Below the pieces are notes generated by a model. That model saw nothing but the letters and a program-made list of their open reading frames with translations, was not told the DNA's origin and made no database searches. Below are positions 2,507 through 52,299 of a stretch of DNA of 64,000 bases, piece by piece. A program made the position numbers and the translations under genes. Origin of the DNA: Rhabdothermincola salaria (GTDB lineage: Bacteria > Actinomycetota > Acidimicrobiia > Acidimicrobiales > Acidimicrobilacustridaceae); assembly GCF_021246445.1 (NCBI RefSeq), contig NZ_JAJQXW010000001.1:1070168-1134167 (forward strand). The letters are read 5' to 3'. How positions within the stretch are numbered: position 1 is the first letter of the stretch; each line of letters starts with the position of its first letter.

Positions 2507-3217
2507 TCAGACCCCGACCAGGGACTCGCTGAAGAGCACCGCCAGCACCGTGCCGAGGGCGAGGAAGGGACCGAAGGGGAAGGGGCGGCTGCCCCGGCGG
2601 GCGACCAGCAGCACCAGACCCACCACGGTGCCGCTGAGGAACCCGATGAGCATCGCCCACAGCACCAGGGCCAGGGCCTGCTGGAGGTCCGAGCCGAGCC
2701 ACCCGACGTAGAGGCCCATCACCGCAGCCAGCTTCACGTCACCGAACCCCATGCCCCGTGGAGAGATGAGATGGGCCAGGAACAGGAACCCGAAGTAGAG
2801 GGCGGCGCCCGCCAGGGCGTGGCGGATGCGATCGGAATCGCCGTCGACGACCGAGACGACGACGATCAGCGGCACCGAGACGAGGAAGGTGGGCAGGACG
2901 ATGAGGTCGGGCAGCCGGTAGTGCTCGATGTCGATGACGGTCAGGGCGGCGAGGGCCGTGAACAGCACGAGGAACGCGCCGAGGGTGCCGACCGAGGCGT
3001 CGGCGAAGCGCCATGCGGCCGCGGCGAACAGCACGAGCACGAGGACGTGCACGGCGAGATCCCGGGTCGAGGGTCGGAGGGGCTTGAGGGGATCGACCAG
3101 CGACAGGCGGTCGGGGACGCGGTCGACGAGCACGGCGGCGACCCAGCCCACGGGGAGGGCGAGGAGCACGCAGACGACCAGCCGGACCACGTTCACGTCG
3201 GCGACGGTAGCGGTCAC
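2507..3217 (-). CDS. type IV prepilin / Flp prepilin leader peptidase (A24 family)
   Basis: 236 aa polytopic membrane protein with GMGFGDVKL motif of A24 aspartic peptidases. Confidence 0.75.
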   Translation of the reverse strand: MTATVADVNVVRLVVCVLLALPVGWVAAVLVDRVPDRLSLVDPLKPLRPSTRDLAVHVLVLVLFAAAAWRFADASVGTLGAFLVLFTALAALTVIDIEHYRLPDLIVLPTFLVSVPLIVVVSVVDGDSDRIRHALAGAALYFGFLFLAHLISPRGMGFGDVKLAAVMGLYVGWLGSDLQQALALVLWAMLIGFLSGTVVGLVLLVARRGSRPFPFGPFLALGTVLAVLFSESLVGV

Positions 3218-3298
3218 CGTCGGTGCGGCCGGACATGGCCGGACACGGAGCCTGCCCTGCGTTCTAGCGGACGGCGCTCTCGACGAGGGCGCCGGCGA

Positions 3299-4345
3299 TC
3301 AGCGTTCGCCGTCACCCAGGAAGCGCAGCAGCAGCTCGTGGTCGAGCTCCTCGGTGGCTTCCACCTCGGCCAGGACCCGGTCGCGCTCTTCGGGCGAGTC
3401 GGCCCGGGCCGCCGCCGCCACGGCTTTGGCTGCCTTCGGGCTCAGGTTGGCGAGGTGACGGGCGAACTCGGCTGCGGTGTCGTCGTCGGCCCCATCGTCG
3501 GCGGACCGATCGAACGCATCGCCACCGGTGGCGGGAGACTCGGACATGGCCGGCGTGGGGTCCCACGAGGACTCCTCGAACCAGCTGGCGGGCGGTTCGG
3601 CACCGCCGGTGGAGACATCGTCGAGGTGATCGACCCGGAGCGACCCGTCGTGGTCTGCGGCCTCGGTGGCGATCCCACCGCCGCTGGGGAGCAGGTCGGC
3701 GTCCGCGGTGGGGGGCTGGGCCTCCTCGGCCGGTGCCTCCTCGCCCACGTGCACCACGCCGATCTCGACCAGGCCATGCACGAGACGGCCGGTGCCCAGC
3801 TCGCTGGCGCCGATGCGCTCGGCCACCGCCGCCGCGGTGGCGCCGGATCCGATGACGGCGAGGACCCGCCAGCGATCGGCATCGATGGCCACCTCTTCGC
3901 CGGGGAGCTCGGGGGCCAGGGTCAGGCGGCACTGGGGCGACGGGAGGACCGACGCGATGCGCCGCCACTCGGCGAGGAGCTCCTCGGCCCGACCGAGCAA
4001 CGCCTCCAGGTCGTGTCGTTCGCCGTCGGGGTCGACGCCGGCGTCGGCCTCGAACTCGAAGGCGCCCTGGTCAAAGCGGAGCAGCTCGAACAGCGATTCG
4101 TCGAGCGGGAGGTCCCCGCCCGGTGCCGTCCGATCGAGCCCGACGCGATGGACCTGGCCGTCGACCACCTCGAGGTGGCCGCGTCCTCGATCGCCGTCGA
4201 GGCTGAGCCGCCCGGTCTTCGACGTCGAGGCCAGGAGGCGCAGGACGTCGGCGAGGGCGAAGGTGTCGATGGTTCCCTGAAGTGCCACGGTTCCTCCCTG
4301 GCCGGGCACGGGCCTCCCGTGCCGCCACCCTGGAACCATCGGCAC
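3299..4345 (-). CDS. DUF4388 domain protein with acidic, Ala-rich C-terminal region
   Basis: N-terminal TIDTFALADVLRLLASTSKTGRL matches PatA-N/DUF4388 signature; start uncertain (track start 4345, possible internal GTG). Confidence 0.55.
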   Translation of the reverse strand: MPMVPGWRHGRPVPGQGGTVALQGTIDTFALADVLRLLASTSKTGRLSLDGDRGRGHLEVVDGQVHRVGLDRTAPGGDLPLDESLFELLRFDQGAFEFEADAGVDPDGERHDLEALLGRAEELLAEWRRIASVLPSPQCRLTLAPELPGEEVAIDADRWRVLAVIGSGATAAAVAERIGASELGTGRLVHGLVEIGVVHVGEEAPAEEAQPPTADADLLPSGGGIATEAADHDGSLRVDHLDDVSTGGAEPPASWFEESSWDPTPAMSESPATGGDAFDRSADDGADDDTAAEFARHLANLSPKAAKAVAAAARADSPEERDRVLAEVEATEELDHELLLRFLGDGER

Positions 4346-4385
4346 CCTGGGGCGCCGAGTCGAGTCTTTTCTGCGCGACGGCGGC

Positions 4386-5261
4386 TCAGGACCCTCGCGC
4401 GAGCGAGGCCCGGGCGGCCGCGGCCATGTCGGCGACCGGGGCCGGGGTGCCGGTCCAGAGCTCGAAGGCCACCGCGGCCTGGTGGACCAGCATCCCCAAG
4501 CCGTCGACCGGGGTGGCTCCGCGCCGACCGGCCTCGGCCAGTAGCGGGGTCACCAGCGGCTGATAGACGAGATCGGCGACGAGCTGGCCCTCGTGGAGGA
4601 CCTCGGGGTCGAACGGTGTGGCTCCTCCGGCCCCCTCCCCCATGCCCACCGACGTGGCGTTCACGACCAGCCCGGCCTCGGCCAGCACCGGGGGGGCGTC
4701 GGCGGGGGCCACCACCCGGCCCCGGTCGCCGGCGAGGGCCGCCGCTCGTTCGGCTCGAGACGATGTTCGGTTCACCACGGTGACCTGGTCGGCTCCGGCC
4801 CGGGAGAGGGCCAGCACGACCGAGCGGGCGGCACCGCCCGCCCCCAGCACGACACAGGGGAGCCCTGCCGGCGAGACGCCCGTCTCGGCGACCAGAGCGG
4901 CCACGAAGCCGGCGCCGTCGGTGTTGTGGCCCCGCAGCGTGCCGTCGTCGTTGACGACACAGTTGACCGCACCGAGCCGGCGGGCATCGTCGGAGAGCTC
5001 GTCGACCGCGCCGGCCGCGGCCTCCTTGTGCGGCATGGTGACCGACAACCCCCCGATGCCGAAGGCCCGCATCCCGCCGAGCGCGGCGGGCACGGCACCG
5101 GCGGGCACCTCGAAGGCCACGTACACCCAGTCGAGCCCGGTCGCGGCGAAGGCGGCGTTCATGATGGCCGGCGAGCGGGAGTGGCCCACGGGCTCGCCGA
5201 TGACCGCGGCCACGCGGGTGGCGCCGGTGGGAGCAGCCCGACCGGCACCGTCGACGCTCAC
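4386..5261 (-). CDS. aroE: shikimate 5-dehydrogenase
   Basis: 291-aa C-terminal part of track ORF 4386..6347: VIGEPVGHSRSPAIMNAAF, NTDGAGF, GAGGAARSV motifs; GTG start at 5261 overlaps mltG TGA (GTGA). Confidence 0.85.
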   Translation of the reverse strand: MSVDGAGRAAPTGATRVAAVIGEPVGHSRSPAIMNAAFAATGLDWVYVAFEVPAGAVPAALGGMRAFGIGGLSVTMPHKEAAAGAVDELSDDARRLGAVNCVVNDDGTLRGHNTDGAGFVAALVAETGVSPAGLPCVVLGAGGAARSVVLALSRAGADQVTVVNRTSSRAERAAALAGDRGRVVAPADAPPVLAEAGLVVNATSVGMGEGAGGATPFDPEVLHEGQLVADLVYQPLVTPLLAEAGRRGATPVDGLGMLVHQAAVAFELWTGTPAPVADMAAAARASLARGS

Positions 5262-9792: not shown

Positions 9793-9842
9793 GGTGCGGG
9801 TCAGCCTAACGACTGGGAGGGACGGTCTCGGCTGTCGGCCGA

Positions 9843-10127
9843 CTACAGGCCGGCTCGGTCGAGCTCGTGGCGCAGCACGGCCTCGGCCTGAGCGCGGTCG
9901 CGTCGGGTCTCGGCGGCGGTGGTGCGCCACTCGTCGATGGCCCCGGAGGCCCGCTCGGCGAGATCGACGACCTCGTCCTCGGCCCGGCGGGCGGCCCGGC
10001 CGGCGGCGTCCTGGACGGACTCGGGGACGTGGCGACGGGTCAGCTGGCGGGCCCGCACGTACCCGACCACGGTGCCACCGGCGCCGACCGCCAGCCCCAC
10101 GGTGAACCAGGTGGCGCGCTTGAACAA
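9843..10127 (-). CDS. small YtxH-like membrane protein (one TM + coiled coil)
   Basis: C-terminal 95 aa of track ORF 9843..11126 (FKRATWFTVGLAVGAGGTVVGYVRARQL...); the rest of that ORF is high-GC read-through; candidate TTG/CTG start abutting DUF948 stop. Confidence 0.45.
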   Translation of the reverse strand: MFKRATWFTVGLAVGAGGTVVGYVRARQLTRRHVPESVQDAAGRAARRAEDEVVDLAERASGAIDEWRTTAAETRRDRAQAEAVLRHELDRAGL

Positions 10128-10129
10128 CC

Positions 10130-10552
10130 TCAGCCCGCCTTGCGCTCGCGGCGAGACCGGCGCGCGATGCGCCGGTCGGCGGGTTCGAGGGCCCGCGGCG
10201 GTTCGGGATCGGCGCGACCGAGGCGGCGGGCGACCCGTTCGGTGGCCACCGAGGCCGAGGCCAGCTTGACCAGCGGGTTGCGCACGACCATCCAGGTGAG
10301 CTTGGACGTGGCGTCGACCCGGGCCGACACGTCCTCGGCGGTGTCGAGGAGGGAGTCGACGCGCTGCAGCTCGCCGTTGGCGGCGTCGACGGTGGCGCGC
10401 AGCTCGGCGATGGCGGGCAGGGTCTCGCGGCGGAGGTCGTCGACGGTCTCGCGCAACGACCGCAGGGTGGTGATGAGGGACTGCACCGCCATGGCCACGA
10501 CCACCAGGCCGACGATGGCGACCACGATGAGCACGACCGAGAGACCGTTCAC
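10130..10552 (-). CDS. DUF948-like membrane/coiled-coil protein
   Basis: 140 aa C-terminal part of track ORF 10130..11719: TM helix VVLIVVAIVGLVVVAMAV then coiled coil; GTG at 10552 overlaps rarA TGA (GTGA). Confidence 0.55.
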   Translation of the reverse strand: MNGLSVVLIVVAIVGLVVVAMAVQSLITTLRSLRETVDDLRRETLPAIAELRATVDAANGELQRVDSLLDTAEDVSARVDATSKLTWMVVRNPLVKLASASVATERVARRLGRADPEPPRALEPADRRIARRSRRERKAG

Positions 10553-11895
10553 GACGCTCCCCCACCTGGCTGTCGTCGCTGTTGCATCTGTTGGCGCACC
10601 TGCTCCTCGTCGCCGTTGGACGACGGCTCGTAGTAGACCCGCTCCGACAGCTCGGCCGGCCGGTACTGCTGGTCGACCCAACCCTCGGGGTCCTCGTGAG
10701 GGTACTCGTACCCCTTGCCGTGGCCCAGGCTCTTGGCCCCCTTGTAGTGAGCGTCGCGCAGGTGCAACGGCACCTCTCCTCCGGCACGCTCCTTGACGTC
10801 GGCCCGGGCCCGGCCGAGGGCGACGGTGACCCGGTTGGACTTGGGCGCCGACGCCAGGTGCACGACGGCGTGGGCCAGGTTGAGCTGGGCCTCGGGCAGC
10901 CCGACGAACTCCACCGCCCTCGCCGCGGCGTCGGCCACCACCAGGCTCTGGGAGTCGGCCAGGCCGATGTCCTCGCTGGCCAGGATGACGAGGCGCCGGG
11001 CGATGAAGCGGGCGTCCTCGCCGGCTTCGAGCATGCGGGCCAACCAGTAGAGACCGGCATCGGCGTCGGAGCCCCGGATGGACTTGATGAACGCCGAGAC
11101 GACGTCGTAGTGGTCGTCGCGTCCATAGCGCAGGGCCTTGGTGCCGAGGGCCGCCTCCACGTCGGCCACCCGCACCCGCACCGCCTCGTCGACGGCGCGG
11201 CCGTCGGCGTCGCGCACGGCGTCGGGGTGCTCGTGGGCCAGGGCCACGGCGACCTCGAGGCTGGTGAGGGCGTGGCGTCCGTCGCCGGCGGCGCGCTCGA
11301 CCAGCAACACCAGGGCGTCGTCGTCGATGGCGACGCCCTCGGCCTCCAGGCCGCGGCGCACCAGGCGGGTGACGGCCTCGAGCGACAGCGGCTCGAGGTG
11401 GAAGAGGGTGGAGCGGCTGAGCAGCGGCGGGTTGACCTCGAAGAACGGGTTCTCGGTGGTGGCGCCGACGAGGACGAGCAGGCCCGACTCGACCGAGGGC
11501 AACAGGGCGTCCTGCTGGGCCTTGTTGAAGCGGTGCACCTCGTCGAGGAACAAGATGGTGCCCTGGCCCCGCTGACCGAGTCGGTCCTGGGCGCGGGCCG
11601 CGGCCTCGCGCACGTCCTTCACCGTGGCGGTGACGGCCGAGAGCTGCTCGAAGGCCTTGGCCGTGGTGCGGGCGATGAGCTGGGCGATGGTGGTCTTGCC
11701 CGTGCCCGGCGGGCCCCACAGGATCACCGACGAGAGGCGGTCGGCCTCGATGAGCGAGCGCAGGGGCCGACCGGGGCCGAGCAGGTGTTCCTGGCCGACG
11801 ACGTCGTCGAGGGAGGTGGGGCGCAACCGGGCCGCGAGCGGGGCCTGGCGGGTCAGGCGGTCCTCGGCGGCGGCGGCGAAGAGGTCGTCAGCCAC
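10549..11895 (-). CDS. rarA: replication-associated recombination protein A (AAA+ ATPase)
   Basis: 448 aa, Walker A GPPGTGKTT, FLDEVHRFNKAQQDALL, MgsA C-terminal domain. Confidence 0.9.
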   Translation of the reverse strand: MADDLFAAAAEDRLTRQAPLAARLRPTSLDDVVGQEHLLGPGRPLRSLIEADRLSSVILWGPPGTGKTTIAQLIARTTAKAFEQLSAVTATVKDVREAAARAQDRLGQRGQGTILFLDEVHRFNKAQQDALLPSVESGLLVLVGATTENPFFEVNPPLLSRSTLFHLEPLSLEAVTRLVRRGLEAEGVAIDDDALVLLVERAAGDGRHALTSLEVAVALAHEHPDAVRDADGRAVDEAVRVRVADVEAALGTKALRYGRDDHYDVVSAFIKSIRGSDADAGLYWLARMLEAGEDARFIARRLVILASEDIGLADSQSLVVADAAARAVEFVGLPEAQLNLAHAVVHLASAPKSNRVTVALGRARADVKERAGGEVPLHLRDAHYKGAKSLGHGKGYEYPHEDPEGWVDQQYRPAELSERVYYEPSSNGDEEQVRQQMQQRRQPGGGAS

Positions 11896-11927: not shown

Positions 11928-13073
11928 TCACCGGAAACGGCGCATGTGCACGTTGAGCACCAGGCCGAGGCCGGCGAAGGCGACCATCGTCGAGGAGCCT
12001 CCCGATGACAGCAGCAGCAGGGGGATGCCGGTGACGGGCATGATGCCCATGGCCATGCCCACGTTCTGGAAGATCGAGAAGGCGAACATGGCCAGCACGC
12101 CGATGCACACCAGCGTCCCGAACAGGTCACGTGCGATCTGGGCGGTGCGCCAGATGCGATAGCAGAGCACTCCGTAGAGGACGAGCACGGTCGCCCCGCC
12201 CACGAAGCCGAACTGCTCGGCCACGGTGGTGAAGATGAAGTCGGTCTGCTGCTCGGGGACGTAGCCGAGACGGGTCTGGGGGCCCTCGAACAGGCCGTGG
12301 CCGGTGACCTCACCCGAGGCGATGGCCTGTTGGCTCTGTTGGATGTTGTACGTGGCCGAGTTGTCGGGATCGCCGGGGAAGGCGAAGGCGGTCAGGCGGT
12401 CCTGTTGGTACTCGGCCAGCACCGGCGAGTTGAGGATGCCGACCACCCCGACCACGCCGATCACGGTGAGCACGGCGATGAAGCGCCCCGGCAGCCCGCC
12501 GACGAGCAGCATGGCGAGCGTGATGGCCACCAGGGTGAGCACCTGGCCGAGGTCGGGCTGGAGCATGATGAGCCCCATCGGCACGAGGGGCACGACCAGC
12601 AGGGCGGCCAGGCGGCGCAGGTCGATGTCGCCCCGGAACTCCGAGAGCATGAAGGCCAGGACCCCGATGAGCGAGAGCTTGGCGAACTCGGCCGGCTGCA
12701 GCTGGAAGGGCCCGAGACTGAACCAGGCCTGGGCCCCGTTGACCCGCGTCCCGAACGGCGACAGCACCCCGATGAGCAGCACGGTGGTGAGCCCGTAGAA
12801 CACCCAGGCCCAGTCGTGCAGCTTGCGGTAGTCGACCAGCGAGAACACGGCCAGGGCGACGGTGCCGCCGACGACGAACACGCCTTGGCGGACGAGGAAG
12901 CTGTCGTCGAAGTCCGGGCCCGGGCCCCGGGTGGCGCTCCACACGGCGATGATCCCGACGAAGGCGAGCGCCAGGGTGCACACCAGCAGCACCGGGTCGA
13001 TGTGCTTGAGCGGGGCCGTGGGGTCGCGTCGGCTGAGGTTGGAGGCGCGGCGCGAGACGTAGGTGGGCTGCAC
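11928..13073 (-). CDS. rodA: SEDS family peptidoglycan glycosyltransferase RodA
   Basis: 381 aa polytopic FtsW/RodA family; directly downstream of PBP2 in the mre cluster; GTG start. Confidence 0.85.
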   Translation of the reverse strand: MQPTYVSRRASNLSRRDPTAPLKHIDPVLLVCTLALAFVGIIAVWSATRGPGPDFDDSFLVRQGVFVVGGTVALAVFSLVDYRKLHDWAWVFYGLTTVLLIGVLSPFGTRVNGAQAWFSLGPFQLQPAEFAKLSLIGVLAFMLSEFRGDIDLRRLAALLVVPLVPMGLIMLQPDLGQVLTLVAITLAMLLVGGLPGRFIAVLTVIGVVGVVGILNSPVLAEYQQDRLTAFAFPGDPDNSATYNIQQSQQAIASGEVTGHGLFEGPQTRLGYVPEQQTDFIFTTVAEQFGFVGGATVLVLYGVLCYRIWRTAQIARDLFGTLVCIGVLAMFAFSIFQNVGMAMGIMPVTGIPLLLLSSGGSSTMVAFAGLGLVLNVHMRRFR

Positions 13074-13076
13074 CGG

Positions 13077-15071
13077 CTAGTCCCCGGTCGTCCGGGTCTG
13101 GATGTCGCCGCCGGTGAGCTCCTGGCCGCTGACCAGCTCGAGGATCTGGCGGACGACCACGCCGGAGCCCTCGCCACCGAAGCCGGACTCCTCCATCACC
13201 GCGGCGGCGGCGAACTTGGCGTCGCCTCTCGGGCCGAAGGCCGCGAACAGCGAGGTGTCGGCTCGCTTCTTCTCCACGCCGTCCTCGAAGAAGGTGACCT
13301 CGGCGGTGCCCGTCTTGCCCACCACCGGGAAGGCCCCCTGGTCGAAGCCGGCGAAGGTGCCCACGGCCGTACCTCGCGAGTCGGTGGTCACCCCGGCCAG
13401 GCCCTCCTCGATGATGCGCAGCACCTCGGGGTCGGCGTCGACCGTGCGCACGACGGAGGGCTCGATGACCTCCAGGACCTCGGGCTCGGGGGTCTCGAGG
13501 GGGTTCCATCCCGATCGCAGCACCCGCCACGCCACCCGGGGCTGGTAGATGGTGCCGCCGTTGGCCAGGGCGGCGTAGGCGTTGGCCAGCTGCAACGGGG
13601 TCACCACCACCACGTTCTGGCCGATGGCCAGCTGCACGTTGTCGCCGGTGAACCACTCGCCGTAGGGGTAGGCGTCGGGGTACTGGTCGTGCAGGGCCTG
13701 CTTTTCGTCGGGGGTGAGCACGAAGCCGGCCGACTCCCCCGGCAGGTCGACCCCGGTGGGCGCGTCGAAGCCCCACCGGGCGGCCGCGTCCTGGATCTGG
13801 GTGGTGCCGTCCATGCGGGCACCGAGGCTGTAGAAGTACGTGTCGACCGACACGGTGAGGGCCCTTCTCATGTCCACGCTGCCGTAGACGGCGCCACCGG
13901 CGTTGGTGAACTCCTGGCCGCCGATCTCGAACACCCCGGTGTCGTTGTACCAGTCGTTGGGCCCGTACACACCGTTGGTGAGGGCGGCGTCGGCGGTGAC
14001 CAGCTTGAAGGTGGAGCCGGGGGCGTACTGGCCGGAGATCGACCGGTCGACCAGCGCGCTCACCCCACCCACGTCGGTGAGCTGGTCGTAGCGCTGCTGA
14101 GAGATGCCACCGACGAACTCGGCCGGGTCATAGCTGGGATAGGTGGCCAGGGCCCGCACCGCGCCCCCCTGGGGGTCGACGACGGCCGCCGCACCGGCAG
14201 GGGCGTTGCGGCGCAGGTCGGCCCCCGACTGGGGCTTGCCCCGCCAGTAGGCCAGGCGGTCGGCCAGGGCCTGCTCGGAACGACGCTGCACGTCGATGTC
14301 GATGTTGAGCTGGATGTCGCTCCCCGGCTTGGGGGGTTGGTAGCTGACCTGCCCCACCGGGCGGTTGTCGGCGTCGATCTCGAGCACCTCGATGCCTGGC
14401 GTGCCCCGCAGCTCGGCCTCGTAGGTGGCCTCGATGCCGGCCAGGCCGATGTTGGACGACGGTTGGTAGGTCTTCTCGACCCCGGTGTCGGGATCGACGC
14501 CCGGTTCCGCCGTCTCGAGCCGCTCGCCCGAGATGCGGCCCACGTAGCCGAGGATGTTGGCCGCCAGCCGGCCCTCGGGGTAGGTGCGCACCGTCTCGCG
14601 CCGCACCTCCACGCCGGGGAACTCCCGAGCGTGCTCGGCCAGGTAGATCTCCAGCTCCTCGGGCACGTCGGCGGCCACGGGAGCGGGCTGCACCGGGTCG
14701 TACTGGGGGTCGGCCAGGCGCCGCTCGACGCTGGCGATCTTGGTGGGCACGCCGAAGCGGGTGAGCGTCTCGGCCAGGTTGCTCACGAGATCGGTCTGCT
14801 CGGCGTCGTCGAGCTCGCTGTAGGCCCGGCGCTCGACGGTGACGACCAGCGAGGTGCGGTTGTCGACGAGGACCCGACCCTTGACGTCGAGGATGCGCCC
14901 TCGGGGGGCTTCCTCGGCCACCACCCGGGTGCGGTTGGCGGCCGCCTCGATGCTCAGCTCCGGCGCGGCCATGACCTGGAGGTACCAGAGCCGGGCGAAG
15001 AGCGCGACGAAGCACCCGAGCACGACGAAGCCCAGGACGCTCATGCGCAGGCGAGGCGACGAGGTGTCCAT
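13077..15071 (-). CDS. mrdA: penicillin-binding protein 2 (class B transpeptidase)
   Basis: PBP dimerisation plus transpeptidase domains (STFK, SGN, KTGTA motifs); ATG at 15071 (MDTSSPRLRMSVLGFVVLG) preferred over track start 15317. Confidence 0.85.
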   Translation of the reverse strand: MDTSSPRLRMSVLGFVVLGCFVALFARLWYLQVMAAPELSIEAAANRTRVVAEEAPRGRILDVKGRVLVDNRTSLVVTVERRAYSELDDAEQTDLVSNLAETLTRFGVPTKIASVERRLADPQYDPVQPAPVAADVPEELEIYLAEHAREFPGVEVRRETVRTYPEGRLAANILGYVGRISGERLETAEPGVDPDTGVEKTYQPSSNIGLAGIEATYEAELRGTPGIEVLEIDADNRPVGQVSYQPPKPGSDIQLNIDIDVQRRSEQALADRLAYWRGKPQSGADLRRNAPAGAAAVVDPQGGAVRALATYPSYDPAEFVGGISQQRYDQLTDVGGVSALVDRSISGQYAPGSTFKLVTADAALTNGVYGPNDWYNDTGVFEIGGQEFTNAGGAVYGSVDMRRALTVSVDTYFYSLGARMDGTTQIQDAAARWGFDAPTGVDLPGESAGFVLTPDEKQALHDQYPDAYPYGEWFTGDNVQLAIGQNVVVVTPLQLANAYAALANGGTIYQPRVAWRVLRSGWNPLETPEPEVLEVIEPSVVRTVDADPEVLRIIEEGLAGVTTDSRGTAVGTFAGFDQGAFPVVGKTGTAEVTFFEDGVEKKRADTSLFAAFGPRGDAKFAAAAVMEESGFGGEGSGVVVRQILELVSGQELTGGDIQTRTTGD

Positions 15072-16510: not shown

Positions 16511-17557
16511 TCAGGTGATGGTCGTCGAGAACAGCACGCCCTTGAGGGCGTCGAACTCCTCGAGGGACTGACCGGAACCGATCGCCACCGCGAACAGCGG
16601 GTTGGGCGCGATGACGATGGGCATGCCGGTCTCGTGCTCCAGCCGGGCGTCGATGCCGTTGAGCAGCGCACCCCCGCCGGCCAGCACGATGCCCTGCTCC
16701 ATGATGTCGGCGGCGAGCTCGGGGGGCGTCTTGTCGAGGGTGACCTTGACGGCGTCGACGATGGCCGACACGGGCTCCTCGAGCGCCTCGCGGATCTCCT
16801 CGGTGGTCGTGACGATGGTCTTGGGCAGGCCCGTCACGAGGTCGCGGCCGCGGATCTCGGCGTGCAGCTCCTGTTCGAGGGGCCAGGCCGACCCGAGCGC
16901 CATCTTCACCTCTTCAGCGGTGCGCTCACCGAGGGCGAGGCTGTACTCCTTCTTGATGAAGTTGATGATGGCGTCGTCGAGCTCGTCGCCGCCGGTGCGC
17001 ACCGACTGCGAGGTGACGACACCCCCCAGCGAGATGACCGCCACCTCGGTGGTGCCACCACCGATGTCGACGATCATGTTCCCGGTGGGCTCCTGCACCG
17101 GCAGGCCGGCACCGATCGCCGCGGCCATGGGCTCTTCGATGATGTAGGCCGGCTTGCGGGCACCGGCGAACTCGGCGGCCTCCTGCACGGCGCGCTGCTC
17201 GACCGGGGTGATGCCCGAGGGCACGCAGATCACCATTCGGGGCTTGGACCACTTGCGCTGGTGCACCTTCTGGATGAAGTAGCGCAGCATCTTCTCGCAG
17301 ATGTCGAAGTCGGCGATGACGCCGTCCTTCAACGGGCGGATGGCCTGGATGTGCGCCGGGGTGCGCCCGATCATGCGCTTGGCCTCGGTGCCGACGGCGA
17401 CCGGTCGGCCGTCCTTGACGTTGACCGCCACGACAGAGGGCTCGTTGAGCACGATGCCCTCACCGCGCACGTAGACCAGGGTGTTGGCCGTACCGAGATC
17501 GACGGCCATGTCGCGGCCCATGATGTTGGACAGCGAGGTGAAGACTTGTCCGGCCAT
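16511..17557 (-). CDS. mreB: rod shape-determining actin homologue MreB
   Basis: Actin-fold motifs [22 protein letters not shown]; ATG at 17557 with GGAAGG RBS preferred over track start 17692. Confidence 0.9.
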
Positions 17558-17711
17558 GCGGGAGACCTTCCGAGAGGTGCTCGGCGGGGTGGTGGAGGTG
17601 CTCAGGGTAGGCGACCACGGCCGAGCGCGTCGGCCGGGCCCGCTCACACCGGTCGACGCCGCAAAGGGTACCGCTCCGTAACGTGACTGCAACAGAGAGA
17701 TGAACGGAGGG

Positions 17712-18119
17712 TCAGAGGCCGGGGAAGAAGATGTCGATCTCGCGGGCGGCGGACTCGAGGCTGTCCGAGCCGTGGATCAGGTTCTCGGTGAAGAGGATGC
17801 CCAGATCGCCGCGAATGGTGCCGGGGGCGGCCTCGCGGGGGTTGGTCGCGCCCATCATCGTGCGCACCACCTTCCAGGTGTCCTCGGGGCCCTCGACCAC
17901 CAGGACCATGGCGGGACCGCGGGTGATGAAGTCGACCAGATCGCCGTAGAAGGGCTTGTCGGCGTGCTCGGCGTAGTGCCGACCGGCGCTGTCGGCGTCG
18001 AGGGTGCGCAGCTCGGCCGCGACCAGGGTGAGGTTGCGGCGCTCGAGGCGGCTGATGATCTCGCCGACGAGACCACGCTCCACGGCGTCGGGCTTGCAGA
18101 TGACCAGGGTGCGATCCAT
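17712..18119 (-). CDS. ndk: nucleoside-diphosphate kinase
   Basis: 135-aa C-terminal part of track ORF 17712..18482: [29 protein letters not shown] active-site His motif. Confidence 0.9.
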
Positions 18120-18175
18120 AGGGCCGCTCAACCTAGACGAGGCGGCGACCAGGGCGACAGTCGACGGCCCGGCCG

Positions 18176-18868
18176 TCAGGGCGCGGCGATGGTGACCGCC
18201 GGGCCCCCGGTCTCGTGGACCGTGAGAGGCCAGGCCCCGGGCGCCGAACGCGCCTCGATCTGGACGACCGCCACCTCTACCGACGTCACCGCGTCCTTGC
18301 CGGTGCGGGGCCACTGCCCCGTGTGCGTGGAATTGGCCTGGTTCGGGCTCACCCACACCTCGTAGAGCGTCGGCGACGTGGCGCGACCATCCGCATAGGT
18401 CCGAGCGAGGCGCAGCGTCACCTTGGCGCTGTCGTAGCCGCCGTAGTCGAACGTCATGCTCGGCGCCCAGTTGGAACCCCACTTGAGCGCTTCGGTGGAA
18501 GCGAAGGAGATGTCCGTCGCCAGCGACGCCGGATCGGGATCGGGATCCGGATCGGGATCGGGATCCGGAGCAGGATCGGGGTCAGGAACCGGGTCGGGAT
18601 CGGGAACCGGGTCAGGGGCCGGACCGGTCGGCGGCTCCGAGGGCGTCGTGGCCGGCGGGAGGTCGCCCGCGGTCATGGTCGGGGTGACGTTGGCACCGGC
18701 GTCGTCGAGCGCATCGCTGCCCGAGCTCTGGACCCATTGGAGGGCGCCCAGGACCACCAGCGCGAACAGGCTGACGATCAGCGCGTACTCGACCAGGCTG
18801 GCGCCGCGATCGGGGGCCACCGGGACGCGTTCAGCGATAGAGGCTGACCGAGCCACCACCGGTGCCAC
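18176..18868 (-). CDS. Flp/TadE-family prepilin-like protein (class III signal peptide) with Pro-Asp repeat linker and about 150-aa C-terminal domain
   Basis: N-terminus ...APDRG/ASLVEYALIVSLFALVVLGALQW fits G/XXXXEY prepilin peptidase site plus hydrophobic helix; then PDPVPDPDP...PDPDPDPDP repeat; GTG start. Confidence 0.6.
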   Translation of the reverse strand: MAPVVARSASIAERVPVAPDRGASLVEYALIVSLFALVVLGALQWVQSSGSDALDDAGANVTPTMTAGDLPPATTPSEPPTGPAPDPVPDPDPVPDPDPAPDPDPDPDPDPDPASLATDISFASTEALKWGSNWAPSMTFDYGGYDSAKVTLRLARTYADGRATSPTLYEVWVSPNQANSTHTGQWPRTGKDAVTSVEVAVVQIEARSAPGAWPLTVHETGGPAVTIAAP

Positions 18869-20147
18869 CTCCTCCTGTGCCGCCGGAGGGAGCGGTGATC
18901 TTGATCACCGAGCTGTGCTGGTTCCCGTAGAGCCCGTCCCCACCGAAGACGAGGGCCGTGGCCTCGAAGTTCCCCCTGTTGATCGAGGGGGTGGCGTTCT
19001 TGGAGTAGTAGGCGCCGCCCAGCTTCACGTTGCCGTTGCCGTCCTTGTTGAACACAGAGGCCCCGACGGCGGTCTCGTCCCAGAGGATCGACACGCCCAT
19101 GTGGTACGGCTCGTCCAGCTGCAGGCTCCCGCTCACATCGAAGTTTCCGGTGTGGGCTCCCTCGCATTTCGTCGGTGCCGTGGGGTTGCCGCCGGCGCAG
19201 CCGAAGATCAGCGTGACCCGGGCCCCCGCGGCGCTCTTGAGCGAGCCGCTCACCTGGAGGCCCCGACGGAAGTAGTAGTTGCCCGACTCGGTGAGGGTGC
19301 AGTTCCCACTGAGGTTGACCTTCTGGTTCCACATCTTGTCGGGCACCAGGTCGTCGCACCCGGCGTTCTCCGGTGTGCCCATGGTGACACCCGTGTAGTC
19401 CACGGTGACGTGCTCGAAGGGGTTGGGAACCCGACCGAAGTACGGCGCTCCGGAGGGGACCGACGCGTAGGTGTACTTGTCGTTGTTGGACTCGTTCTGG
19501 ATCCCGTAGACGAGCGTGGTCGGACGGTTGTTGTTGCCGTTGGTGTTGATCAGCAGCCGGTCGGCCCACACCCCGCGGCCGTCCTCGCTGTTGATGTTGC
19601 CGTTCCCGTCCTGTTGGAACCACGCCCCACCGATGGCGCAGATGCCGCACGGGCCGGGGTCGCCGGTCGTCGCCTGCGTCCACTTGGCCTCGGCCGATGC
19701 GGTCACGTCGGTGCCGTCGCTGCCCACCACCCCGCCGAAGAAGCTCGGGGCGATCTCCTCGGGGAGGACGACCCGCACCACTCCGCCCGGTCGGTAGACC
19801 GACACGCAGCTCCCGGTGCTGGCTCCGATCACCTCGTAGCCGTCGGGTTGCCCCACCGTGCAACCGGACCAGGCCGCGCTCGTGAGCGCCGACCAGTTCA
19901 TGTCCGCGATCTGGCGAGCAGCCTCGGCCGCCTCCGCGTCGCTGCCGCCGTCGGCGAAGGTCTGGGCCGCCGCCAGCGCGGCGGCGTCGGCCGACGTCTG
20001 CGCCTGGCGCCGCTCCTGGCGGGCGTAGGCGACGTCGATCGCCAGCGCAGCCACCAGGAGCACGACCACCATCAGCCCGCCGGCCATCAGCACCAGCACG
20101 GCGCCGTCGTCGTCACGTGCTCGGCCGGACCTCGCAAGGGTGATCAT
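18831..20147 (-). CDS. TadG-like pilus assembly protein (TadE/G-like N-terminal TM domain, Asn/Gly-rich C-terminal domain)
   Basis: ATG at 20147: MITLARSGRARDDDGAVLVLMAGGLMVVVLLVAALAIDVAYARQERRQAQTSADAAALAAAQ typical TadG N-terminus; upstream part of the track ORF is read-through. Confidence 0.65.
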   Translation of the reverse strand: MITLARSGRARDDDGAVLVLMAGGLMVVVLLVAALAIDVAYARQERRQAQTSADAAALAAAQTFADGGSDAEAAEAARQIADMNWSALTSAAWSGCTVGQPDGYEVIGASTGSCVSVYRPGGVVRVVLPEEIAPSFFGGVVGSDGTDVTASAEAKWTQATTGDPGPCGICAIGGAWFQQDGNGNINSEDGRGVWADRLLINTNGNNNRPTTLVYGIQNESNNDKYTYASVPSGAPYFGRVPNPFEHVTVDYTGVTMGTPENAGCDDLVPDKMWNQKVNLSGNCTLTESGNYYFRRGLQVSGSLKSAAGARVTLIFGCAGGNPTAPTKCEGAHTGNFDVSGSLQLDEPYHMGVSILWDETAVGASVFNKDGNGNVKLGGAYYSKNATPSINRGNFEATALVFGGDGLYGNQHSSVIKITAPSGGTGGGGTGGGSVSLYR

Positions 20148-20650
20148 GCTGTGGCCTCCTGGGCGTCGCACCACGCCGGGGTGCCGGGGCTGGAGCCGAA
20201 GGGCACACCATCGCCCTCGATGAACATGACGGCCTTGTCGCGCACCTCGCCCTCCACGGCATCGGCCACGACGGGGAAGCCCGTCAGGCTCTCGACCTGG
20301 GCCTCGGCACACACGACGAGGTAGGGGTCGGCCACCCGCACGTAGACCTCGAGGTCGTCGACGGTGGTGAGCTCACCGATGCGATCGCGGGTGAGCGCTT
20401 CGAGCTCGTCGGTGGTGGCGATCCCGGCGCCCTCGGCCACCACGCCCTGGCGGGCGCCTTCCCTGACGCCATGCCGGATGGCGTTGCGATCGTTGAGCGC
20501 CACGCCGAAGTCGAGGATCCCGGCGACGACCAGGAACAGCACCGGGAGGATGAGGGCGGCCTCGACGAGCACGGCGCCGTCGTCGCCGCGTCCTCGACGG
20601 GGGATCCTTGGGTGAGCACGCCGTCGGCGCGCCATGCAGGGGGAGAACAT
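20144..20650 (-). CDS. TadE-like pseudopilin family protein
   Basis: GDDGAVLVEAALILPVLFLVVAGILDFGVALNDRNAIRHGVREGAR TadE-like domain; ATG at 20650 with GAAGGA RBS; ATGA overlap with TadG-like start. Confidence 0.65.
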   Translation of the reverse strand: MFSPCMARRRRAHPRIPRRGRGDDGAVLVEAALILPVLFLVVAGILDFGVALNDRNAIRHGVREGARQGVVAEGAGIATTDELEALTRDRIGELTTVDDLEVYVRVADPYLVVCAEAQVESLTGFPVVADAVEGEVRDKAVMFIEGDGVPFGSSPGTPAWCDAQEATA

Positions 20651-20789
20651 CGGATGTCCTTCTCGTCCAGAGGAAGGTCTGCTTCGACGGTAGCGACCCG
20701 CGGGGCCGGTGCCGTGGGCCGTAAGGCCCAATCACTGCATCGGCACACGAGCACCGGAACTTGACGATGCAACCCGTTTCGTGAGGTGG

Positions 20790-22094
20790 CTACATGTCCT
20801 CGCGGAGGCGGCGTTCGATCTCGGTGCGGGCGGCGCCGGCGACGTAGAGCGAACCGGCCACCAACACCACGTCGTCCTCGGTGCACACGGCGAGGGCGCG
20901 GTCGAGCGCCTCGGCGGGATCGGGCACGATCTCGGTGAGCACCGGGACCGAGGCGGCCACCGCGGCCAGGTCCGCCGCGGGAACCGCACGCGGGGAGTCC
21001 GGGGTGCAGGCGACGAGGAGGTCGGCGCGCTGGGCGTCGAGGGCGTCGAGCATCTGGCGGGGGTCACGCCCCGACAACAGCCCGACGACCAGGATGCGCC
21101 GACCGGGCACGTCGAACTCCTCGGCCACCGTCTCGGCCAGGGCCATGGCGCCTTGCGGGTTGTGCGCCCCGTCGAGGAGGACCAGCGGGTTGCGCTGCAC
21201 GACTTCGAGACGGCCCGGCATGGTGACCGTGGCCAGGGCCTCACGAGCCACCTCGGCGTCGAGAGGACGATCGAAGAAGGCCTCCACCGCGGCGATGGCG
21301 CATGCTGCGTTGGCGCCCTGATGGCGACCGTAGAGCGGGAGGAACAGGTCGTCGAGGCTGCCCAGCGGCGTGCGCACCGAGATCATCTGGCCACCGACGG
21401 CCGACGACTCCTCGACGATGTCGAAGTCCTCACCGCGCCGCCACGTCAGGCGCGGTCCCTCGGCCAGGAAGGTGGCCTGCAGGGTGGGGTCGGTCTCCCC
21501 CAGCACCAGCACCGACTCAGGGGTGATGATGCCCGCCTTCTCGGAGGCGATGCGCTGCATCCAGTCGCCCTGGCCGTCGGTGTGGTCCTGACCGACGTTG
21601 GTGACCACGGCGACATCGGCGTCGGCGACGTTGGTGGCGTCGTAGCGGCCGAGCAGGCCCACCTCCACCACCGCCACGTCGACCGCGATCTCGGCGAACC
21701 ACAGGTAGGCCGCGGCCGTCAGCAGCTCGAAGTAGGACGGCTCGGTTCCCGACAACGGGGTCAGGCGGGCCAGCTCGGTGACGACCCGCGCCAGGTCGTC
21801 ATCGGCGATCGGCTCACCGTTCCAGGCCAGGCGCTCGTTGACCCTCTGCAGGTGCGGGCTCGAGTAGCTGCCCACCGACAGGCCGTGTTCGGCGAGCAGC
21901 GCCGTGATCATGCGCCCGGTGGAGCCCTTGCCGTTGGTACCGGTGAGGTGGATGACCGGATACGCCTGCTGAGGGTCGCCCAGCACCTCCACCAGCGCTC
22001 GCATGGGGTCGAGGGACAGCCCGGAGATGCGGCCGGCGGTGGCTTCGTGGTTGATGTGCCGGTCGAGGAACCGGAGGGCGTCGCGGTACTCCAA
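20790..22094 (-). CDS. folC: bifunctional folylpolyglutamate synthase / dihydrofolate synthase
   Basis: 434 aa Mur ligase family, HLTGTNGKGST P-loop. Confidence 0.85.
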   Translation of the reverse strand: MEYRDALRFLDRHINHEATAGRISGLSLDPMRALVEVLGDPQQAYPVIHLTGTNGKGSTGRMITALLAEHGLSVGSYSSPHLQRVNERLAWNGEPIADDDLARVVTELARLTPLSGTEPSYFELLTAAAYLWFAEIAVDVAVVEVGLLGRYDATNVADADVAVVTNVGQDHTDGQGDWMQRIASEKAGIITPESVLVLGETDPTLQATFLAEGPRLTWRRGEDFDIVEESSAVGGQMISVRTPLGSLDDLFLPLYGRHQGANAACAIAAVEAFFDRPLDAEVAREALATVTMPGRLEVVQRNPLVLLDGAHNPQGAMALAETVAEEFDVPGRRILVVGLLSGRDPRQMLDALDAQRADLLVACTPDSPRAVPAADLAAVAASVPVLTEIVPDPAEALDRALAVCTEDDVVLVAGSLYVAGAARTEIERRLREDM

Positions 22095-22105
22095 AGGGAG
22101 TCGGC

Positions 22106-23377
22106 TCAGCTGGCGGCGCGGCGGGGCCGCGTCGTGCGGGGCGTCGCGGCACGGGGCACGAGCGTCGGGTTGACCTTCTCGAGCACCACGTCAGCGTCGA
22201 TCACGACCTTCTCGATGTCGTCGCGGCTGGGCAGCTCGTACATCACACCCAACAGCACCTCTTCGAGGATGGCCCGCAGCCCCCGGGCGCCGGTGCCCCG
22301 CAGGAGGGCCTGGTCGGCGACCGCCGCCAGCGCGTCCTCGGTGAACTCGAGCTCGACGTCTTCGAACTCGAAGAACTTCTTGTACTGCTTGACCAGGGCG
22401 TTGCGCGGCTCGACGAGGATCTCGATGAGGGCGGCCTGGTCGAGGTTCGAGACGGCACCGATGACCGGGAGGCGCCCGATGAACTCGGGGATCAGGCCGA
22501 ACTTCAAGAGGTCCTCGGGCAGGACGGCGGTGTAGAGCTGGCCGAGGTCGGCGTTGTCCGAGCGCAGCTCGGCGGAGAACCCGACCCCCTTCTTGCCGAT
22601 GCGGCTCTCGATGATCCGGTCGATGCCGGCGAAGGCTCCACCGCAGATGAACAAGATGTTGGTGGTGTCGATCTGGATGAACTCCTGGTGGGGGTGCTTG
22701 CGACCCCCCTGGGGCGGCACCGAGGCGGTGGTCCCCTCCAAGATCTTCAACAGCGCCTGTTGCACGCCTTCACCGGAGACGTCGCGGGTGATCGACGGGT
22801 TCTCGCTCTTGCGGGCGATCTTGTCGATCTCGTCGATGTAGATGATGCCCGTCTCGGCCTTCTTGACGTCGTAGTCGGCGGCCTGGATGAGCTTCAGCAG
22901 GATGTTCTCGACGTCCTCGCCCACGTACCCGGCCTCGGTGAGCGCGGTGGCATCTGCGATGGCGAAGGGGACATTGAGCATGCGGGCCAGGGTCTGGGCC
23001 AGCAGGGTCTTGCCGCAGCCGGTGGGACCCAACAGCAAGATGTTCGACTTGGCCAGCTCCACCTCGTCGTGGTGGGCCGCACCGAACTGCACCCGCTTGT
23101 AGTGGTTGTAGACCGCGACCGACAGGATCTTCTTGGCGGGCTCCTGACCGACGATGTAGTCGTTCAGGAACTCGAAGATCTCCCGGGGCTTGGGGAGCTC
23201 GTCGAAGTGGACCTCACCGGTCTCGGCCAGCTCCTCTTCGATGATCTCGTTGCACAGGTCGATGCACTCGTCGCAGATGTACACGCCGGGACCGGCGATG
23301 AGCTTCTTGACCTGCTTCTGCGACTTGCCGCAGAACGAGCACTTCAGCAGCTCGCCCCCGTCTCCGAACTTGGCCAC
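22106..23377 (-). CDS. clpX: ATP-dependent Clp protease ATP-binding subunit ClpX
   Basis: 423 aa, N-terminal zinc ribbon CSFCGK...CDEC, AAA+ Walker A GPTGCGKT. Confidence 0.95.
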
Positions 23378-23413: not shown

Positions 23414-24085
23414 CTAGCGGACGGCCGTGATGGGACCACTGACATCGGCGAGCGAACGAGCCGAGATGACCTCGTCGAGGATCCCGTACTCCTTGGCTTC
23501 CTCTGCCGACATTACAAAGTCGCGGTCGGTGTCGCGGTGGACCTTCTCGACGGTCTGTCCCGTGTGGGCGGCCAGCATCTCCTCGAGGAGGGTCCGCATG
23601 CGCAGGATCTCCTTGGCCGCCAGCTCGATGTCGGTGGCCTGCCCCTGGGCTCCCGCGTAGGGCTGGTGGATGAGGACCCGGGCGTGGGGCAGCGCCAGGC
23701 GCTTGCCCGGCGTGCCGGCCGCCAGCAGCACCGCGGCGGCCGATGCCGCCTGCCCGAAGCAGATGGTGGAGATGTCGGGCTTGACGAACTGCATCGTGTC
23801 GTAGATGGCGAACAGCGCCGTGATGTCGCCGCCGGGGCTGTTGATGTAGATGCTGATGTCCTTGTCGGGGTTCTCCGACTCGAGGTGCAGGAGCTGGGCG
23901 CAGATCAAGTTGGCGACCGTGTCGTCGATCGGGGTGCCCAGGAAGATGATGTTCTCCTTGAGCAACCGCGAGTACAGATCGGCCTGGATGGTCTGCCCGC
24001 GGTTGGTCTCGTAGAGCACCGCAGGGTTCGGGATGTAGTTGGAGACCCGCAGGTCGGCGAGGCCTCCACCGGTCGAGACGGTCAC
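23414..24085 (-). CDS. clpP: ATP-dependent Clp protease proteolytic subunit (ClpP2-like)
   Basis: 223 aa; Ser-His-Asp context [35 protein letters not shown] resembles actinobacterial ClpP2; ATGA overlap with tig. Confidence 0.9.
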
Positions 24086-25659: not shown

Positions 25660-27141
25660 ATGCACGATCTTCCCCTCACCGAGCCCGGCCCTGCCGTGGC
25701 CACGCCGCCGAGTCGAACGCCGAGGCCGTCGCGCCGACTCCGTCTCCGGGTGGTCCCCGCCATCGCCGTCCTCGTCGTGATGGCGCTGTTCGGCACGGCG
25801 TGCGAACAGCTCCACGACGACAACCGAGCGGCCCCGATCTTCGGGGCCGAGAACGGCCAGCTGCCCGGCGGCCGGCTGGTGAACGTGAACGGTTGCACCG
25901 TCTACTGGGAGGCTGCGGTCTCGCTGAAGCTCATGATGCAGGCCGCCGCCGATGACGGCGTGAAGCTCACGCCCACGAGCTGCTATCGCGACCTCGCCGG
26001 CCAGATCTCGGCCCGCAACTACTGGTGCGGGCTCAGCCAGTGCCACATGGCGGCCGTTCCCGGCTCGTCGAACCACGGGTGGGGCAAGGCTGTGGACTTC
26101 CGCAACGGGTCGCTGCCGATGACCTACGACAGCGAAGCCTTCAAGTGGCTGACGGCGTACGGCTGGCACTACGGCTGGTTCCACCCCAAGGCCATGCGCC
26201 AGGGCGGACCCGTGCCCGAGCCCTGGCACTGGGAGTGGATCGGCGACGGCGGCAGGATGTTCCACGGGAAGTACTTCGGGTTCGGCAACGCGCTCCCGCT
26301 GCAGGGCAGCCCCCTCGGCAGCCTCGACGTGGTGGCGCCTCGAGCAGGCGGCGCGCTCGTGCAAGGGTGGACCTTCGACCCGGACCAACAGGATCCCATC
26401 GACGTCCACGTGTACGTCAACGGTCAGGGTGTCGGCGCATGGCGGGCAGGCTCCCCCCGGCCGGATGTGGGCGCCGCCTTCCCGGCCTACGCCTCTCGAC
26501 CCCACGGGTTCTCGCTCCGATTGCCGCTGGCCAACGGCCCCAACGAGGTCTGCGTGTACGGCATCGAGGCGCACGGCACCGGCACGTCGACGCTCCTCGG
26601 CTGTCGCAGCGTCTTCGCCGACAACGGCTTCCCCTTGAGCGGGAGCCCGATCGGAGCGCTCGACGCCGTCCGGCCCGTCCAAGGTGGCGCCAGGGTGCTC
26701 GGATGGGCGATCGATCCCGATCGCAGCGAACCGATCGATGTCCACGTGTACGTGAACGGCCAGGGCGTCGGCGGATGGAAGGCGGGCGCCCCACGGGGAG
26801 ACGTGGCCAGGGCGTTCCCCGCCTACGCCGCCCATCCCCACGGCTACGACCTTCCGTTGGCGTTGGCTCCCGGCCGCCACACCGTGTGCGTCTACGCGAT
26901 CAACGCCGCGGGCACCGGTTCACACACCCTTCTCGGTTGCCGGGCGGTGACGGTGGACCCACCTGCCTCGATCTTCACCGAGCCCGAGCCGGTGGCGCCC
27001 GACGCTCCGGACTCCACCACGACACCGACCACGGTGCCGACGTCCACGACGACCGCGACCACCACGCCGACCACGGCCACGACCACGACCACGCAGGCCG
27101 AGCCCACCACCGGCGGGACCCCGGGCGGGTCCGGGGACTGA
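25660..27141 (+). CDS. secreted VanY-like D-Ala-D-Ala carboxypeptidase (M15B) with two tandem about 95-aa C-terminal repeat domains and Thr/Pro-rich tail
   Basis: In-frame ATG at 25660 preceded by GGAG; signal/anchor LVVMALFGTAC; M15 motifs SCYRD, SNHGWGKAVDF, WHWEW; track ORF upstream part is read-through. Confidence 0.75.
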   Translation: MHDLPLTEPGPAVATPPSRTPRPSRRLRLRVVPAIAVLVVMALFGTACEQLHDDNRAAPIFGAENGQLPGGRLVNVNGCTVYWEAAVSLKLMMQAAADDGVKLTPTSCYRDLAGQISARNYWCGLSQCHMAAVPGSSNHGWGKAVDFRNGSLPMTYDSEAFKWLTAYGWHYGWFHPKAMRQGGPVPEPWHWEWIGDGGRMFHGKYFGFGNALPLQGSPLGSLDVVAPRAGGALVQGWTFDPDQQDPIDVHVYVNGQGVGAWRAGSPRPDVGAAFPAYASRPHGFSLRLPLANGPNEVCVYGIEAHGTGTSTLLGCRSVFADNGFPLSGSPIGALDAVRPVQGGARVLGWAIDPDRSEPIDVHVYVNGQGVGGWKAGAPRGDVARAFPAYAAHPHGYDLPLALAPGRHTVCVYAINAAGTGSHTLLGCRAVTVDPPASIFTEPEPVAPDAPDSTTTPTTVPTSTTTATTTPTTATTTTTQAEPTTGGTPGGSGD

Positions 27142-52170: not shown

Positions 52171-52299
52171 CGGTCTCCTTGACGACACACACCCGAGGCC
52201 GGGTGTCACGAACGAACGGCGGGCCGCAGACGACCCGGAACCCGCAGGCTACCGCCGTCGATGCTCCCGGCCTCCCGGGGTACCGTGGCAGGACCACGA

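Follow-up and report, generated by a model that had tools for sequence, protein, structure and literature searches.

We analyzed a 64-kb window of the genome of Rhabdothermincola salaria (Acidimicrobiia, Iamiaceae), which is the whole stretch of DNA considered here and has an actinobacterial GC content (about 71%). Three overlapping minus-strand open reading frames (ORFs), which we term ORF1, ORF2, and ORF3, lie between folC and ndk (Table 1). The gene order on the minus strand is tig, clpP, clpX, folC, the trio, ndk, mreB, mreC, mreD, the gene for penicillin-binding protein 2 (PBP2), and rodA. An earlier note on this DNA described the trio as consecutive Tad-type pseudopilin-like genes between these two housekeeping genes. 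Both statements hold: the two neighbors are in place, ORF1 and ORF2 exceed the curated thresholds of their Pfam families, and ORF3 can be assigned by its motif and by synteny.

The trio has the codon-position GC bias that is typical of real genes. The GC content at third codon positions (GC3) is 0.83–0.84, which is slightly lower than in the neighboring genes (0.90–0.95). All three frames are intact and translationally coupled. ORF1 and ORF2 overlap by exactly ATGA, as the earlier note stated, but the 38-nt overlap that it gave for ORF2 and ORF3 arises only if ORF3 begins at GTG 18868, so that the stop of ORF2 at 18831 falls within it. The Shine-Dalgarno sequence AGGAGGAGG at 18876–18868 is better spaced for GTG 18859 or 18856. 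These are therefore the likelier starts, and the overlap is probably 29 or 26 nt. A scan of 17500–22300 for promoters and terminators gave no sites.

Table 1. Positions in the 64-kb window of the trio, its flanking genes, and the prepilin peptidase.
Feature	Positions	Strand	Basis
folC	22094..20790	-	
ORF1, TadE-family minor pilin (pseudopilin)	20144..20650	-	PF07811
ORF2, TadG-family large minor pilin or anchor, 438 aa	18831..20147	-	PF13400
ORF2 beta-solenoid domain, about residues 167-417	18897..19649	-	predicted
ORF3, Flp-type prepilin-like protein with C-terminal extension	18176..18868	-	motif, orthologs, low-confidence model
ORF3 linker	18512-18697	-	
ORF3 all-beta C-terminal domain	18179-18511	-	predicted
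ndk	18119..17712	-	
A24 prepilin peptidase	2507..3220	-	PF01478

ORF1 encodes 168 amino acids from ATG 20650, or 163 from the RefSeq start at ATG 20635 (WP_249419925.1). The 163-residue product exactly matches a protein of R. salaria in the collection that we searched, where it is named “TadE/TadG family type IV pilus assembly protein.” ORF1 matches the full TadE profile (PF07811, positions 1–43) with 51.7 bits (gathering cutoff 22.9, E = 9.3e-14). Its N-terminus (...RRGRGDDG/AVLVEAALILPVLFLVV) has a basic leader, a glycine at −1 (G25), and a glutamate at +5, which together form a predicted G/XXXXE processing site, and the site is followed by the hydrophobic helix AVLVEAALILPVLFLVVAGIL. This glutamate (Glu30) and further core residues are invariant across four orthologs.

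ORF2 is 100% identical to the RefSeq protein “pilus assembly protein TadG-related protein” of R. salaria. It matches Tad (PF13400) with 38.5 bits (cutoff 22.3, E = 1.5e-9), and so do all 10 of the homologs that we aligned. Its N-terminus (...GRARDDDG/AVLVLMAGGLMVVVLLVAALAI) keeps the glycine and the hydrophobic segment, but there is no glutamate at +5 (Glu5), either in ORF2 or in any of the 10 homologs. Five cysteines (96, 114, 167, 170, and 317) are invariant in this alignment; the C-terminal strand SVSLYR is conserved in part, and Leu436 is invariant. Three of the homologs weakly match DUF7305. We found neither a von Willebrand factor A (VWA) domain nor another classical TadG domain in ORF2, by Pfam or by fold comparison. 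We also considered whether ORF2 belongs to the Rv3654c TadE-like family (TIGR03816), but it scores 30.7 bits against a cutoff of 50.95, and we rejected the assignment on that score. In an exhaustive search, ORF2 had relatives in 1302 representative clusters at E ≤ 1e-3 and in 159 at E ≤ 1e-10. Dozens of these clusters are full-length (420–460 amino acids) and about 30% identical to ORF2. Thus, ORF2 belongs to a moderate-sized family and is not a singleton.

The AlphaFold2 model of ORF2, which was built from the 10-sequence alignment and has a pLDDT of 78.5, contains a long helix (residues 11–65), a small head of helices and beta strands (70–156), and about 25 short strands (167–417). A glycine-rich stretch of low confidence and a final strand complete it. 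In other words, a pilin-like helix and head are predicted to be followed by a beta-solenoid that resembles ice-binding proteins and the Thermus protein ComZ. There is no detectable sequence similarity between ORF2 and ComZ (9–13% identity in structural alignments), and a sequence search of the PDB with the ORF2 profile gave nothing meaningful. Tapirins, autotransporters, and tailspikes also match the solenoid.

ORF3 encodes 214–230 amino acids, depending on the start codon (230 from GTG 18868). After a leader, its N-terminus (...VAPDRG/ASLVEYALIVSLFALVVLGAL) carries the Flp motif G/XXXXEY (as DRG/ASLVEY), and then come a hydrophobic helix (residues 25–57), a linker (about 58–119), and a predicted all-beta domain of about 110 amino acids. 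The linker is a near-perfect (PD)n or PDPVPDPD repeat and is rich in proline and aspartate. The earlier note had labeled ORF3 “long Flp/TadF-like,” and the Flp motif bears out part of this label. However, ORF3 does not reach the gathering score of Flp_Fap (PF04964), and it is 3–4 times as long as an Flp pilin: Flp prepilins are small, with 50–80 amino acids (PMC4322843). On score and size, therefore, ORF3 is a pseudopilin-like or modular protein and not the major Flp pilin. We call it Flp-like because of the motif and the conservation of the motif in relatives, not because of the Pfam score. In the orthologs on two metagenome contigs, the motif reads DRGAGVVEYAL, the linker is again of low complexity, and the C-terminal domain is retained (33% identity, 58 bits). 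Their linkers are rich in serine, threonine, and proline and are mucin-like, whereas the linker of ORF3 is PD-rich; the linkers thus agree in length but differ in composition.

Exact look-ups of ORF3 with four plausible starts found no entry in the 15-billion-protein collection, whereas ORF1 and ORF2 are both in it. A homology search with ORF3 minus the PD repeat gave no match, not even to itself, and a full-length search was swamped by the repeat, so the distribution of ORF3 is described here from the neighboring genes in the loci that we fetched. In the public R. salaria record, ORF3 may be an unannotated gene or may have been called with another start. Judged by profile scores and size, the trio falls in the TadE and TadG families of Pfam and includes neither a bona fide Flp pilin nor a member of the Rv3654c family.

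The arrangement is conserved. The order folC, TadE, TadG, (ORF3-like), ndk, mreB is kept on three metagenome contigs and on a 13.9-kb JGI contig, with TadG proteins that are 50–54% identical to ORF2. That synteny is kept at this level of divergence argues for selection. We also considered a recent horizontal insertion of the trio, which the slightly lower GC3 might suggest, but this is unlikely because synteny is conserved at about 50% identity. Among the matches listed, more distant TadE–TadG pairs (27–42% identity) have different surroundings and come from Acidimicrobiia, Nocardioides, Marmoricola, and further Actinomycetota, and also from metagenome-assembled genomes (MAGs) of Dormibacterota and Baltobacterales, and the TadE gene is directly upstream of the TadG gene in nearly all of these distant loci. 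Of the loci that we sampled, just two are near core tad genes. One (L019) has RcpC just downstream, and the other (L022, from an Actinomycetota MAG) has a T2SSE ATPase, a ParA-type TadZ, and RcpC at a distance of 6–10 kb. Through these neighbors, the family is linked to Tad machines. Across the related loci that we sampled, it is usual for TadE–TadG pairs to be located away from tad loci. In an Acidimicrobiia MAG (L013), TadG is followed by another long Flp-motif protein (ERGATAVEYGL) with a different C-terminal domain, which scores 24.3 bits on Flp_Fap.

Some other features of these loci are worth recording. L022 contains two divergent TadE–TadG pairs back to back, at 9468–11033 (+) and 11955–13201 (−), both 6–10 kb from cpaF, tadZ, and rcpC, and the TadG gene of the first pair appears to run through two frames, suggesting either a frameshift or an error in the assembly. 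A more distant clade is represented by L004 (7856–11386) and L009 (2862–6305); there, TadE–TadG is always preceded by an HTTM membrane protein (vitamin-K-dependent gamma-carboxylase-like) and a Peptidase_M75/DHOR cluster, and these pairs are near mfd. We considered a functional link between the trio and the adjacent mreBCD-pbp2-rodA genes, and dropped it because the distant pairs are in unrelated contexts (HTTM/mfd, lipid genes, and two-component systems).

If the trio belongs to a Tad system, where is the rest of it? The earlier note had reported no tadZABC or platform genes beside the trio, and our searches of the 64 kb agree. By tblastn with queries from a related locus, no homolog of CpaF, TadZ, or RcpC was found in the window (best E of 0.2–0.5), and reading all of its high-GC3 ORFs turned up no CpaF/TadA, TadZ, RcpC, or TadB/C. 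No other ORF in the window has an Flp-like N-terminus. ORF2 is thus not located in a tad locus of the tadZABC(D)EF kind. Actinomycetota are monoderm, so the missing secretin is uninformative. A published eggNOG/KO annotation of R. salaria EGI L10124T (GCA_021246445.1) lists three cpaF/tadA, three tadB, two tadC, one cpaE/tadZ, and no cpaB genes, as counts rather than positions of the cpaF loci or of flp genes (PMC12263773, Table S1). The same table gives one prepilin peptidase (K02654), one comEA, one comEC, and no pilA, pilB, pilC, or pilT. With none of the motor or platform genes in the window, the Tad motors and platforms are, by this annotation, encoded elsewhere in the genome, which was one of the two possibilities that the earlier note had raised. 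The grounds on which the note would have been refuted do not apply: CpaF is in the table, and the profiles point to no unrelated families. Tad is the sole type IV filament system reported for R. salaria.

The window does contain an A24 prepilin peptidase, about 15 kb from the trio (PF01478, E = 1.8e-15, residues 84–195 of 237). The trio is thus “stand-alone,” as it had been described, with respect to core tad genes in the window but not with respect to the peptidase. Both catalytic-aspartate motifs are present (IDIEHYRLPD and GMGFGDVKL), and no further Pfam domain, such as a methyltransferase, was reported for the protein. The gene is directly downstream of aroC (chorismate synthase, 1189–2466), and the gene after it encodes a DUF4388 protein whose C-terminal region is long and acidic; the peptidase and DUF4388 genes together span 2507–4549 (−). 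As just one peptidase is reported for the genome, it is most likely this one. It is likely to be the processing enzyme for ORF1 and ORF3, and possibly for ORF2, and presumably it is the TadV equivalent for all Tad substrates.

We propose that the trio probably encodes the minor pilins of a Tad pilus, as a module separated from the motor and platform genes, which are elsewhere in the R. salaria genome. The three proteins would be inserted in the membrane via class-III-type N-terminal segments. Such N-termini had been claimed for all three; ORF1 and ORF3 have the full G/XXXXE(Y) motif, which is the processing motif of Flp pilins and of TadE/F pseudopilins (PMC4322843), and ORF2 has its glycine and hydrophobic segment. 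The single A24 peptidase would cleave after the conserved glycine (G/AVLVE in ORF1 and G/ASLVEY in ORF3), and one of the three CpaF/TadB/TadC machines would then assemble the trio into a complex that primes the filament or forms its tip. The subunit that caps the priming tip complex of type IV filaments has no Glu5 (reviewed in PMC10191384), which matches ORF2 as the cap: Glu5 is present in ORF1, ORF3, and their orthologs, and absent in ORF2 and its homologs. The large ORF2 would cap the filament with its beta-solenoid outward, and ORF1 and ORF3 would sit beneath it and bridge to the Flp filament, with ORF3 displaying its small beta domain on the flexible Pro/Asp linker. The exposed solenoid could be a binding module, that is, an adhesin or a DNA receptor. 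Here we infer the processing, the order of assembly, the location at the tip, and the ligand.

Several observations weigh against this proposal. [quoted passage not shown] Second, sheared pilus fractions of Micrococcus luteus contained no detectable TadE/F-like proteins (PMC4322843). Third, Foldseek ranks the same solenoid fold families first for ORF2, but weakly (E of about 0.01–0.06), and the single-sequence AlphaFold2 model of ORF3 (a helix, a disordered linker, and a small beta domain) is of low confidence, with a pLDDT of 59. Finally, ORF3 scores 23.1 bits on Flp_Fap, under the cutoff of 32.2, and covers profile positions 6–32 only.

Among known systems, the trio would seem to work most like the KilLMN Tips of Myxococcus and the classical TadE/F/G set. 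KilL, KilM, and KilN, the TadE/F/G homologs of the Kil Tad pilus, are predicted to assemble as heterotrimers, the “Tip” complexes (Herrou et al., 2025; PMC12075869). Of the four Tip sets, three are encoded in clusters other than kil-gene cluster II; the backbone is the large TadG-like subunit, which also displays a variable domain; numerous disulfide bonds are predicted for the complexes; processing depends on the prepilin peptidase; and, by HMM, Kil Tips are reported as limited to Myxococcota (PMC12075869). Like them, the trio consists of three adjacent TadE/F/G-like pilin-fold genes that are encoded away from the core clusters, in a genome that has a Tad machine and a prepilin peptidase according to the published annotation. 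Like KilN, ORF2 is a large, cysteine-rich TadG-like protein (five cysteines are invariant) whose N-terminal part is pilin-like and which has an additional distal domain. However, the distal domain of ORF2 is predicted to be a beta-solenoid like that of ice-binding proteins, not the helices and beta-scaffold of KilN; the third subunit is Flp-like with a tethered domain; the position of the trio is conserved within a housekeeping block; and R. salaria, a monoderm actinobacterium, is not known to be a predator.

The A. actinomycetemcomitans proteins share with the trio the PF07811 and PF13400 families, the G/XXXXE motifs in the small subunits, and, between its TadG and ORF2, a single N-terminal hydrophobic segment. 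But the A. actinomycetemcomitans genes are inside flp-tadV-rcpCAB-tadZABCDEFG, while the trio is between folC and ndk and far from any tadA. The order in the trio (E, G, Flp-like) also differs, and ORF2 has a predicted beta-solenoid in place of the domains of classical TadG. A precedent for that solenoid is ComZ of Thermus thermophilus (PDB 6qvi, with PilA2), which combines a pilin framework with a beta-solenoid whose closest relative is an ice-binding protein, and for which its authors argued that the tip is the one place in the pilus where it fits, and showed that it binds DNA (PMC6561018). The model of ORF2 likewise has a pilin-like N-terminal part and a large triangular beta-solenoid, with DUF3494 ice-binding proteins as the nearest structural relatives, but ComZ comes from a T4a-type system of a diderm.

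Two actinobacterial systems are also comparable. The tad-1 and tad-2 clusters of M. luteus (Angelov et al., 2015; PMC4322843) are actinobacterial Tad systems with an unlinked tadV and with comEA and comEC in the genome; they encode TadE/F-like proteins of about 150 amino acids, distal PF13400 proteins, and a longer ORF with the Flp G/XXXXEY motif. In contrast to the detached trio, the minor-pilin genes of M. luteus directly follow tadA-tadB-tadC. The mycobacterial Rv3654c–Rv3660c locus (TIGR03816) also encodes TadE/G-like N-termini. The Rv3654c family is small (its profile has about 109 positions), unlike ORF2, and it adjoins a CpaF-like ATPase and a DEAH helicase, neither of which is adjacent to the trio.

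An alternative is that the three proteins form an accessory complex that is anchored in the membrane at the base of the Tad pilus and spans the cell wall, outside the filament itself. ORF2 would be an uncleaved bitopic protein, ORF3 would be anchored by its helix and carry its C-terminal domain through the peptidoglycan on the Pro-rich linker of roughly 60 residues, and the three proteins would guide the pilus through the thick monoderm wall or anchor it there. The views of TadG as an anchor or a membrane component, and the missing Glu5 of ORF2, suit this arrangement. Also, Angelov et al. favored a base or wall-spanning structure for TadE/TadF, because these proteins are absent from sheared pili and yet needed for Flp display (PMC4322843), and the shift of the linker from PD-rich to S/T/P-rich in the orthologs at a similar length fits a spacer. 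Nevertheless, we consider a base complex somewhat unlikely. All three proteins retain the motif around the glycine at −1 (D-[DR]-G), and the absence of Glu5 is a hallmark of capping pilins as well; a large solenoid on a pilin-like head, as predicted for ORF2, matches the tip pilin ComZ; and recent genetics and modeling put TadE/F/G-like proteins at the tip (PMC12075869).

A second possibility, which is a special case of a location at the tip, is that the trio is a DNA receptor for natural transformation, in which the solenoid of ORF2 would bind extracellular DNA and pass it to ComEA/ComEC, along the lines proposed for ComZ-PilA2 in Thermus and known for the Tad pili of M. luteus. A competence-like function had also been raised in the earlier note, as one example of a different use of the proteins. 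R. salaria has comEA and comEC and no type IVa pilus or Com pilus genes, transformation of M. luteus requires both tad clusters, including the TadE/F/G-like genes (PMC4322843), and the predicted fold of ORF2 is like that of ComZ. However, beta-solenoids are generic adhesin scaffolds, as the matches to tapirins, autotransporters, and tailspikes illustrate, and reading the ORFs of the window revealed no competence genes near the trio. We view this function as quite unlikely.

Finally, the trio could be the decaying remnant of a former tad locus without a present function, which would account for the lack of core tad genes in the 64 kb, the lower GC3, and the seeming absence of ORF3 from public protein sets, but this is highly improbable given three intact and coupled frames, the same genes in the same place in relatives at 33–54% protein identity with motifs and cysteines conserved, and the prevalence of TadE–TadG pairs off tad loci in the related loci sampled.

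The window also encodes several proteins outside these systems. A PAS-PAS-GGDEF-EAL protein for c-di-GMP turnover is encoded at 43381–45516 (+), about 23 kb from the trio; in other bacteria, c-di-GMP often controls Tad pili. There are two clpP paralogs about 28 kb apart, one in the tig-clpP-clpX operon (23414–24085, −) and one alone beside a tRNA-Leu gene (51574–52248, −). An HU-like DNA-binding protein with a long C-terminal Lys/Ala-rich repeat tail, as in actinobacterial HupB/Hlp, is at 45601–46362 (−). A secreted protein at about 25700–27141 (+) has a VanY/M15-like peptidase motif region, followed by two tandem domains of about 110 amino acids each (with the pattern ...DPIDVHVYVNGQGVG.W.AG.PR.DV...) and a Thr/Pro-rich tail. 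Two nearly identical lipoprotein-type solute-binding protein genes are in tandem at 58387–60114 and 60231–61949 (−), with the common N-terminus MYRAGTSTRPRWLVMMAIALFAALLASSCASDDESGDGGNGG, and a short third fragment at 62018–62230 (−) matches their C-terminal end. From the sequences, this region (58387–62230) looks like a recent tandem duplication.

A bolder claim is that ORF3 represents an undescribed modular class of Flp-type pilin and, at the same time, that the trio is a DNA- or surface-binding tip in Acidimicrobiia. Taken jointly, this seems unlikely. If it were true, the Flp alpha1 helix of ORF3 would enter the thin Tad filament and carry a globular beta domain at the end of a long Pro-rich tether, whether flexible or rigid, and ORF3 would join a TadG cap that has a solenoid and no Glu5 in a conserved tip that is encoded inside the folC-ndk-mreBCD block of Iamiaceae-like Acidimicrobiia. 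It would also point to a Tad-dependent route of natural transformation or adhesion for these poorly studied bacteria.

The arrangement of the trio is real but fairly ordinary. ORF1 and ORF2 are already named TadE and TadG in RefSeq, and the Tad motors are elsewhere in the genome, so the understanding of Tad systems is unchanged. If the trio is indeed a minor-pilin module, then detached TadE/TadG modules, which have been detailed so far only for the Kil “Tips” of Myxococcus, would also be conserved units in monoderm Actinomycetota, in this case exposing a predicted beta-solenoid of the ice-binding-protein type. The trio would then provide concrete candidates for the adhesin or the DNA receptor of Tad pili in the Acidimicrobiia, a group with few cultured members and no genetics.

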